DNA of 64,000 bases from Escherichia coli. Its GTDB lineage: Bacteria; Pseudomonadota; Gammaproteobacteria; Enterobacterales; Enterobacteriaceae. Below the pieces are notes generated by a model that saw only the letters and a list, made by a program, of their open reading frames with translations, was not told the DNA's origin and did not search any database. Position numbers and translations under genes: made by a program. This document shows positions 10,437 through 11,275 of the stretch, piece after piece (position 1 is the stretch's first letter; each line of letters begins with the position of its first letter). The stretch lies in assembly GCF_044324875.1 (NCBI RefSeq), contig NZ_CP172185.1. The stretch is one strand, 5' to 3'.

Positions 10437-10892
10437 ATGCTGGATATAATCCTGGCGACGAGAGATATTTATTTTGAAAAAGCCCTGCGAGAGATATTTG
10501 GAACCGTAAGCAGTCGAATCAGATATATAGAAGATGCCATATCAGACAGAAGAAGGGTGCAGTCAGGCAGGTCATTCAGATATTATTTTGTATTCTGTGA
10601 TGATGAGTATACAGATATTGTTCGTATTCTTTTTACCGGAGAGGCCTGCTGTATTCTGAATAAGTCGATGCTGAATCTGAGAGCGGCCGGAGGTGTGTTG
10701 ACGCTGGAAGAGCGCAGAGCGGTACTGAACCGGTATTACAGAGGTTTAAGTATTGCGGAGATTACAGAAGAGACGGGGCAGAATGACAAGACGGTATACG
10801 GTCATCTTCGTCGTGCACTGCAGCGGTCTGGATTCCGGAAGGGGCGTTTTATAAAGGGGAGAGAAGCGGCGGGGGATTCAGGTGTTGAATAA
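10437..10892 (+). CDS. Putative small DNA-binding regulator (sigma-70 region-4-like helix-turn-helix)
   Basis: 151-aa ORF; C-terminal segment LSIAEITEETGQNDKTVYGHLRRALQR resembles an HTH. Confidence 0.4.
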   Translation: MLDIILATRDIYFEKALREIFGTVSSRIRYIEDAISDRRRVQSGRSFRYYFVFCDDEYTDIVRILFTGEACCILNKSMLNLRAAGGVLTLEERRAVLNRYYRGLSIAEITEETGQNDKTVYGHLRRALQRSGFRKGRFIKGREAAGDSGVE

Positions 10893-11275
10893 TGTATCTT
10901 ATATTGTGATATCGGTGCTGCTGCTGTTATTTTTTGTTGTATTTGTGACGAATGGTTAAGAATAAAACATGAGTTGGTGATTATCAGGACAGGTTGCTTG
11001 TATATGAAGATAACAAAGGCGGCATTTATTTTTGCGCTGTCAGTGTGGAGTGTTGCTGTGATATGTCTTTTATTATTTGTACTGGTTGTTCTGGGATAGC
11101 TATAGTGGAATTATTATTTTTTTAAGACTATGGTTTATATTTTTATTCGGCAATATTTCTGTAAACAATTAAATATCAGAAAGGCGTGTTGTATGCGTGA
11201 ACACGCCTGAGTATGTATACAGAGATTGTTAATTTGGAGAGAATAATTACAGTTGTTATTTATTTGACGTCCTGA

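Follow-up and report, generated by a model that had tools for sequence, protein, structure and literature searches.

Two short open reading frames (ORFs) in the spacer at the end of an Escherichia coli prophage, one of 31 codons (orf31) and probably also one of 25 codons (orf25), are tentatively read here as unannotated genes for single-pass inner-membrane peptides, the translation, membrane insertion and function of which we infer from the DNA. We assign this reading a probability of roughly 0.45, and as part of it the two ORFs would constitute the last portion of an E. coli-specific mobile cargo block that carries an Eib-type adhesin.

The window, by which we mean the whole 64-kb stretch of E. 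coli DNA that was analysed, contains the end of a lambdoid prophage in mlrA, beside btsS/btsR. The hallmarks of a prophage are plainly present in the form of tail genes, DinI and an attR within mlrA adjoining btsS, and an earlier reading made from the letters alone (hereafter the sequence-only reading) was correct in placing the spacer in a prophage and in describing it as AT-rich, the GC content being 30-41%. Every RefSeq record inspected leaves the spacer blank in its PGAP annotation, and both hydrophobic ORFs fall in the first 220 nt of the spacer region. The features that bear on the argument are as follows.

9095-10375: Eib/YadA-type trimeric-autotransporter adhesin gene, the first of four features at the prophage end
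10437..10892, + strand: helix-turn-helix (HTH) gene, 151 aa, RefSeq "sigma factor-like helix-turn-helix DNA-binding protein", Pfam PF08281
10871..10876, + strand: GGGGGA, Shine-Dalgarno-like site of orf25, anti-Shine-Dalgarno (anti-SD) pairing -8.6 kcal/mol, 5 nt before GTG 10882
10882..10959, + strand: orf25, 25 codons, GTG start overlapping the HTH stop, encoding MLNNVSYIVISVLLLLFFVVFVTNG
10893..11003, + strand: open stretch in the frame of the HTH gene and orf31, which are separated only by the TAA at 10890
10980..11008, - strand: promoter-like site TTCATA-17-GATAAT, at chance level (2 sites against 3.6 expected from shuffles)
10986..10993, + strand: AGGACAGG, weak interrupted ribosome site of orf31, anti-SD pairing -5.6 kcal/mol, about 9-10 nt before the ATG
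11004..11099 (stop included), + strand: orf31, 31 codons, ATG start, encoding MKITKAAFIFALSVWSVAVICLLLFVLVVLG
11100..11111: right end of the conserved block, where BLAST matches to copies with the second type of right flank (type B) stop at query position 675, equal to 11111
between the HTH gene and the DinI-like gene: spacer of 383 nt
11276-11524: DinI-like gene, on the strand opposite to the HTH gene

The window contains 771 ORFs of 20-60 codons, both strands counted, and among these orf31 (KD17 = 3.18) stands first for hydrophobicity and orf25 (KD17 = 2.99) second, both above the two ZorO toxin ORFs that served as positive controls (at 22511 and 23119, ranks 6 and 7), and orf31 is likewise the most hydrophobic of the 577 ATG ORFs of 20-50 aa in the window. 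What sets the stretch apart more than its AT content is a strand asymmetry: no other 200 nt of the window is as rich in G+T, the excess over the mean being 3.8 standard deviations. The sequence-only reading had named two possible origins for the hydrophobic frames, a by-product of an AT-rich composition and genuine small membrane proteins. Length by itself is readily obtained, as ATG ORFs of at least 31 codons occur in 25% of dinucleotide-preserving shuffles of the stretch, but only about 0.1% of shuffles contain one as hydrophobic as orf31; when any start codon is allowed, 0.2% of shuffles reach the hydrophobicity of the best ORF and 0 of 10,000 reach that of both ORFs. Local composition does not explain the hydrophobicity of the two ORFs, each of which has a hydrophobic segment of membrane-spanning length beyond what composition provides, so that the by-product half of the earlier statement falls. 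The codon phase points in the same direction, T occupying 61% of second codon positions in the orf31 frame and 68% in the orf25 frame, and C occupying 0% of third positions in the two ORFs. From the ranking, the shuffles and the codon phase taken together, we conclude that coding for hydrophobic helices has left its mark on the stretch, whether that coding is still in force or belongs to the past. The membrane-protein half of the earlier statement gains support from the start signals, the positive-inside N-terminus of orf31, the frames preserved in nearly every copy and the end of the homology block just behind the stop of orf31.

These same results render it improbable that orf31 and orf25 are chance ORFs of a G+T-rich, C-poor non-coding spacer, one which might serve as a 3' UTR or as an antisense Rho entry site against convergent dinI transcription. 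GT-rich DNA does give hydrophobic codons in every frame (the third frame here is likewise rich in Cys, Ile and Val), and the C-rich, unstructured minus-strand RNA and the spacer left blank by PGAP would suit such an origin, as would the ease with which shuffles produce ORFs of this length. The hydrophobicity reached in so few of the composition-keeping shuffles argues against it, however, as does the frame-specific phasing of T at position 2. No comparable non-coding stretch is found elsewhere in the 64 kb, where the further segments that rank high for G+T include 11851-12100, reaching into the first part of the membrane-protein gene btsS; moreover, an extreme composition is itself the product expected of membrane-helix coding.

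The 31-codon ORF exists precisely where the sequence-only reading had placed it, with the translation exactly as written there, and the weak ribosome site which that reading had described upstream corresponds to AGGACAGG. The strength of this site is comparable with that of the sites of the HTH gene (anti-SD duplex -6.9 kcal/mol) and btsS (-5.3 kcal/mol), and orf31 combines an ATG start with a ribosome site in a frame of no more than 50 codons. The peptide bears lysines at positions 2 and 5, and after 5 residues enters the helix, a hydrophobic run of about 25 residues; this layout is consistent with an N-in single-pass membrane peptide having a positive-inside N-terminus. The 31-aa ORF has also been called by automatic gene finders in hundreds of public contigs, where it occurs as four variants in one cluster.

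For orf25, the GTG at 10882 sits 8 nt ahead of the TAA of the HTH gene (10890-10892), and with GGGGGA before it this ORF also has a start codon and a ribosome site within the limit of 50 codons. The predicted helix begins after 5-6 residues and is not flanked by charged residues, and the position-2 T pattern persists in the orf25 frame for four codons beyond a run of six T (T6, 10930-10935), giving a helix of full length in the present frame. A GTG at 10906 had been taken in the sequence-only reading as the start of a second, 17-codon hydrophobic frame; the GTG is indeed there, but the extent was wrong, as the frame 10906-10959 is nested in the 25-codon ORF from 10882 and its own GTG has no ribosome site (+0.4 kcal/mol). 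The overlap of GTG and TAA, as read from the DNA, suggests translational coupling of orf25 to the HTH gene. There are also points against regarding the two as genes, namely the weak and interrupted Shine-Dalgarno sequence of orf31 and, for orf25, the GTG start and the missing charged flanks.

Both small ORFs are probably carried on a transcript of the HTH gene. The protein encoded by this gene, an orphan DNA-binding protein, has the HTH at residues 87-130, of the sigma-70 region 4/LuxR-like kind, and PF08281 matches at 30.9 bits against a cut-off of 25.7; TIGR02937, the model for the ECF superfamily, reaches only 19 bits against a cut-off of 42.9 and covers residues 87-129 only, and profile searches recognise region 4 but no sigma-2 domain. 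The PHROG family 6585, with a profile of 156 positions against the present 151 aa, matches the N-terminus weakly. Beyond generic HTH matches, no homologue below 94% identity was found either by a word-index search of 5.8 billion proteins or by an exhaustive phmmer search of 1.84 billion representatives, a sequence search of the PDB returned weak region-4 matches only, and the structure model of the protein (pLDDT 37) is unusable. No plus-strand promoter-like site is predicted in 10300-11700, and because there is no separate plus-strand promoter we propose that both ORFs would be co-transcribed with the HTH gene. Ribosomes terminating or re-initiating at the HTH stop/GTG overlap by way of GGGGGA would then translate orf25, whereas orf31 would be initiated at its own ATG. 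Each peptide would form one transmembrane helix, and the lysine-rich N-terminus of orf31 would lie in the cytoplasm.

The stretch 10860-11111 is carried by 183 of 5,426 complete E. coli genomes at 287 places, with up to 6 per genome, in each case immediately downstream of the same HTH gene. Within the block the order is: the 3' end of the Eib-like adhesin gene, the HTH gene, orf25 and orf31. Its left edge falls inside the adhesin gene near 10009, where we place the start of the shared block because the passenger domain upstream is mosaic. On the right, homology between the flank types stops 12 nt past the stop of orf31 and gives way to one of two unrelated flanks, type A being the DinI side seen in this window and type B leading into MliC, IS256 or YaiO contexts, and the prophages and islands that carry the block vary. 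A functional unit would be expected to end like this, with mosaic sequence setting in just behind a stop codon; the evidence, being that of a single junction, is circumstantial.

Conservation of the reading frames among related sequences had been put forward in the sequence-only reading as a check. We compared 35 retrieved copies over 10437-11111, all of them at least 99% identical, and both ORFs are intact in all except one with an IS3-family element in the first codons of orf31 (L027) and two with indels in error-laden assemblies (L013 and L029). The frames accordingly persist in nearly every copy, but no diverged relatives were found for comparison, and as there is no diverged homologue the conservation test is without power. 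The four variants of orf31 (A6V, I20M, V28I and L30M) each exchange one hydrophobic residue for another; given that some 54% of random substitutions in orf31 would be synonymous or similarly benign, four of four corresponds to p of about 0.09 on few SNPs. In orf25 the variants are one synonymous SNP and one in-frame deletion in a GCT repeat. The annotated HTH gene itself shows 6 nonsynonymous against 2 synonymous SNPs, and this depth of divergence is thus uninformative on selection in either direction.

Searches for more distant relatives of the peptides were equally unproductive. A 76-aa chimeric query spanning both small ORFs returned identical E. coli fragments only, and a degenerate back-translated pattern of 14-17 orf31 residues matched a single near-identical prophage in IMG/VR and none of 100,044 genomes, each from a different species. 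There was no match in phage and plasmid collections, nothing meaningful in Pfam, NCBIfam or PHROGs for the peptides, and no Rfam match in the spacer even at E <=5, and a literature string search for the peptide gave nothing. A match to the Doppel family (15 bits against a cut-off of 25) was set aside as a reflection of hydrophobic composition, and an internal duplication between the two hydrophobic segments was likewise discarded, the repeat at a 99-nt offset being at the level of shuffled sequence.

A quite possible alternative is that the ORFs are remnants of a longer membrane-protein gene, in which case the peptides, if made, would be functionless and would persist only through the youth of the block. 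The remnants could stem from a two-helix protein of about 72 aa starting at GTG 10882, in which a single-nucleotide change in T6 separated the two helices, or from a C-terminal extension that once anchored the HTH protein in the membrane and is now severed from it by the TAA at 10890. The frame of the HTH gene is free of stops for 68 codons past this TAA, which occurs in about 0.5% of shuffles (p of about 0.005) and is a modest argument; NCBI lists a partial protein of 67 aa (P0025) for this open frame at the ends of contigs. A +1 indel in T6 would join orf25 to the frame of the HTH gene and orf31, and with one extra T the product from GTG 10882 would be 72 aa long and consist of a helix, a positively charged loop (DEWLRIKHE...R...K.TK) and a second helix, an arrangement to be compared with the artefactual database protein P0006. 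The two hydrophobic segments in different frames, together with the open frame, fit a decayed longer gene equally well. One copy tolerates an IS in orf31, and in a block at least 99% identical everywhere decay would not yet be visible. On the other side, an intact longer version is absent, the best of the 288 places in 183 complete genomes being exactly two indels short of the fused form, and no homologue of any longer product was found. In addition, the assemblies with the fused form are full of other homopolymer errors, the T phasing of orf25 continues past the T tract through a helix of full length, the PHROG profile is close to the present length of the HTH protein, and both present ORFs have usable start signals.

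The same database proteins raise the matter of recoding, in which a membrane-tethered HTH regulator would arise when ribosomes read through the TAA at 10890, or when the frame is changed at the G5 tract (10871-10875) or at T6, either by frameshifting or by phase variation. With orf31 in frame with the HTH gene and a single stop between them, such a product can be drawn, and three database proteins do have the HTH fused to a transmembrane segment: P0006 (220 aa) extends from the HTH domain across the two hydrophobic segments, and P0014 and P0026 have part of the HTH frame fused to the orf25 frame. These come from assemblies with pervasive homopolymer errors. The contig of P0006 (L013) has four private homopolymer indels in 4 kb, that of P0014 (L029) has both prfC and a resolvase gene in pieces, and G5, on which some of the public long-read assemblies go wrong, is read as G4 in both of these error-rich assemblies. 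Among 5,426 complete genomes the fused form was not found once, the best place lacking exactly the two indels, and we rejected the fused proteins as evidence of an ancestral gene or of phase variation, regarding them as homopolymer assembly artefacts. UAA followed by U is the strongest termination context in E. coli, and since the base after the HTH stop is T (TAAT) readthrough is unlikely; slippage favours longer tracts than these of 5-6 nt, and a slippery heptamer and a +1 site are absent. Recoding is in our estimation extremely unlikely. Somewhat better placed, but still very doubtful, is the notion that orf31 or orf25 is the membrane-damaging toxin of a type I system, held down by an antisense RNA from the promoter-like site at 11008-10980. 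Size and hydrophobicity would suit (25 and 31 aa, both below 60 aa, with the ZorO of the window at 29 aa), as would the location at a prophage end and the orientation of the promoter-like site, which faces the 5' side of orf31. That site is nonetheless at chance level, the minus strand yielded no terminator, and the antisense RNA shows no structure (MFE -15 kcal/mol, z +1.44). Rfam recognises OrzO-P at both zor loci in 22190-23208 (101 and 92 bits) and has no antitoxin match here, and the toxin families of NCBIfam and Pfam do not match. Orf31 has neither its own promoter nor a long structured 5' UTR, the fold of the plus-strand RNA being only marginally better than that of shuffles (z -1.88), and the block occurs in as many as 6 copies in one genome, which also tells against a toxin.

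Taken as small membrane-protein genes, orf31 and orf25 may be placed beside several systems that are better understood. E. coli has a number of single-pass inner-membrane proteins of less than 50 aa, among them MgtS/YneM (31 aa), YohP, AcrZ and MgrB. The candidates share with this class a size of 25-31 aa with one helix filling most of the peptide, the lysines on the N-terminal side in orf31 (positive-inside), and a position in a seemingly non-coding spacer beside a regulator gene, where annotation misses them. They differ in having no sequence similarity to these proteins, in belonging to a mobile E. coli block rather than to the core genome, and in being arranged in tandem with one apparently coupled to an HTH gene. 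With zorO-orzO, found twice in the window and a validated example of its type within this genome, the likeness lies in a hydrophobic peptide some 30 aa long. The differences are that zorO is accompanied by a structured, divergently encoded antitoxin RNA known to Rfam and that its amphipathic helix contains charged residues, whereas in the candidates the helix is hydrophobic throughout and neither an antisense RNA gene nor a separate promoter could be detected. ECF sigma factors paired with membrane anti-sigma factors have the same sigma-70 region 4 fold upstream and the same single-pass membrane ORF downstream, overlapping the upstream stop, but here the HTH protein has no recognisable sigma-2 domain. 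We considered the locus as such a pair and rejected this, as region 4 only is present and orf25 at 25 aa is too small for an anti-sigma domain; the few residues ahead of the helix in either peptide leave no cytoplasmic domain of that kind. The position is that of prophage "moron" cargo such as the Eib immunoglobulin-binding cassettes, between tail-fibre genes and attR with a YadA-like adhesin ahead. An HTH gene and small ORFs downstream of eib are absent from the searchable literature on the Eib cassettes of lambdoid prophages, which makes no mention of genes downstream of eib.

From the close coupling proposed for orf25 and the regulator, one may suppose that both peptides act with that regulator, or on the envelope that receives the exported adhesin, rather than as free-standing toxins. 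A bolder proposal, and one we consider quite improbable, is that the HTH regulator and the 25-aa and 31-aa peptides together form a minimal module, in which the peptides would tether or gate the DNA-binding protein at the inner membrane. Were this true, the module would link the state of the envelope to expression of the neighbouring Eib-type adhesin, as a much reduced analogue of sigma/anti-sigma or small-peptide control, and would represent a family of a kind not described, confined to a mobile, virulence-associated block of E. coli.

For annotation, the consequence is that pipelines skip both ORFs, and that the fused "sigma factor-like" proteins in the databases are homopolymer assembly errors. 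If translated, the two ORFs would add two further unannotated small membrane proteins to those of E. coli. The adhesin cassette to which they belong, of the immunoglobulin-binding or chain-forming type, is carried by some 3% of the complete E. coli genomes, among which poultry strains and human extra-intestinal isolates are numerous. Regulators, transporters and envelope stress are often under the influence of small membrane peptides, and those described here could affect the expression or the export of the adhesin.

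The sigma factor-like HTH gene (10437-10892, plus strand) is followed by the two small ORFs (10882-10959 and 11004-11099, plus strand), and NCBI and nr hold entries of 220 and 95 aa, named "sigma factor-like HTH DNA-binding proteins", which correspond to this gene joined to the small-ORF frames. Such fused loci lie in retrieved copies of the block from public assemblies GCA_028598215.1 and GCA_014857325.1 (L013, 3001-3663; L029, 3001-3288). The fused proteins are products of homopolymer assembly errors (at G5, 10871-10875, and T6, 10930-10935) in error-rich long-read assemblies. 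In one further copy, L027 (E. coli SFE8, NZ_CP051219.1), an IS3-family element interrupts the 31-codon ORF within its first codons, at a point equivalent to approximately 11006-11012 of the window.

The features that surround the small ORFs are as follows.

6287-8620, minus strand: IS66-family genes (ORFs of 512 aa, 115 aa (TnpB-like) and 133 aa)
9095-10375: Eib/YadA-like adhesin gene, with an in-frame TAA at 9926-9928
10400-10417: perfect GC-rich hairpin, CCGGGGG-GAGT-CCCCCGG, between adhesin stop and HTH start
11181-11209: hairpin AGGCGTGTT-GTATGCGTG-AACACGCCT, downstream of a minus-strand DinI-like gene
11738-11806, minus strand: fragment of mlrA (yehV), which is interrupted by the prophage

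The hairpin at 11181-11209 is likely the dinI terminator, and it is also likely to be the earliest point at which plus-strand transcripts from the small ORFs could plausibly end in the type of flank that the window carries. The mlrA remnant beyond it comprises a 5' fragment only (MALYTIGEVALLCDINPVTLRA) and adjoins btsS/btsR (12013-14429); RefSeq annotates the equivalent fragment as a partial pseudogene.

Elsewhere in the window, two zorO/orzO-type type I toxin-antitoxin loci stand in tandem (22190-23208), and these served as the positive control in the small-ORF analysis. Both toxin ORFs, recovered by the small-ORF scan, encode the identical peptide MDTLTQKLTVLIAVLELLVALLRLIDLLK. The CyaR sRNA and TPP riboswitch listed with them are ordinary core-genome features.

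22190-22265, minus strand: OrzO-P antitoxin RNA (Rfam, 101 bits)
22511-22600, plus strand: zorO-type toxin ORF, 29 aa
22800-22873, minus strand: OrzO-P antitoxin RNA (Rfam, 92 bits)
23119-23208, plus strand: zorO-type toxin ORF, 29 aa
45905-46001, plus strand: TPP riboswitch (Rfam gathering threshold, 71.2 bits)
62965-63050, minus strand: CyaR sRNA (Rfam gathering threshold, 100.7 bits)

Upstream of the HTH gene, the TAA splits the adhesin gene (...DETRT*TDSSVRT..., the asterisk marking the stop) into ORFs of 277 and 144 aa in the same frame; in this strain the gene has probably been reduced to a nonsense pseudogene. The IS66-family genes are inserted directly upstream of it, with the tail-fibre region on their other side, and the part common to other copies of the block is the 3' part only, from approximately 10009. 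The hairpin at 10400-10417 has no T-run, and is followed on its 3' side by a TATAAT-like GATATAAT and then GAGG-N5-ATG; it could act as an RNA-stability or attenuation element that couples the expression of eib and the HTH gene.
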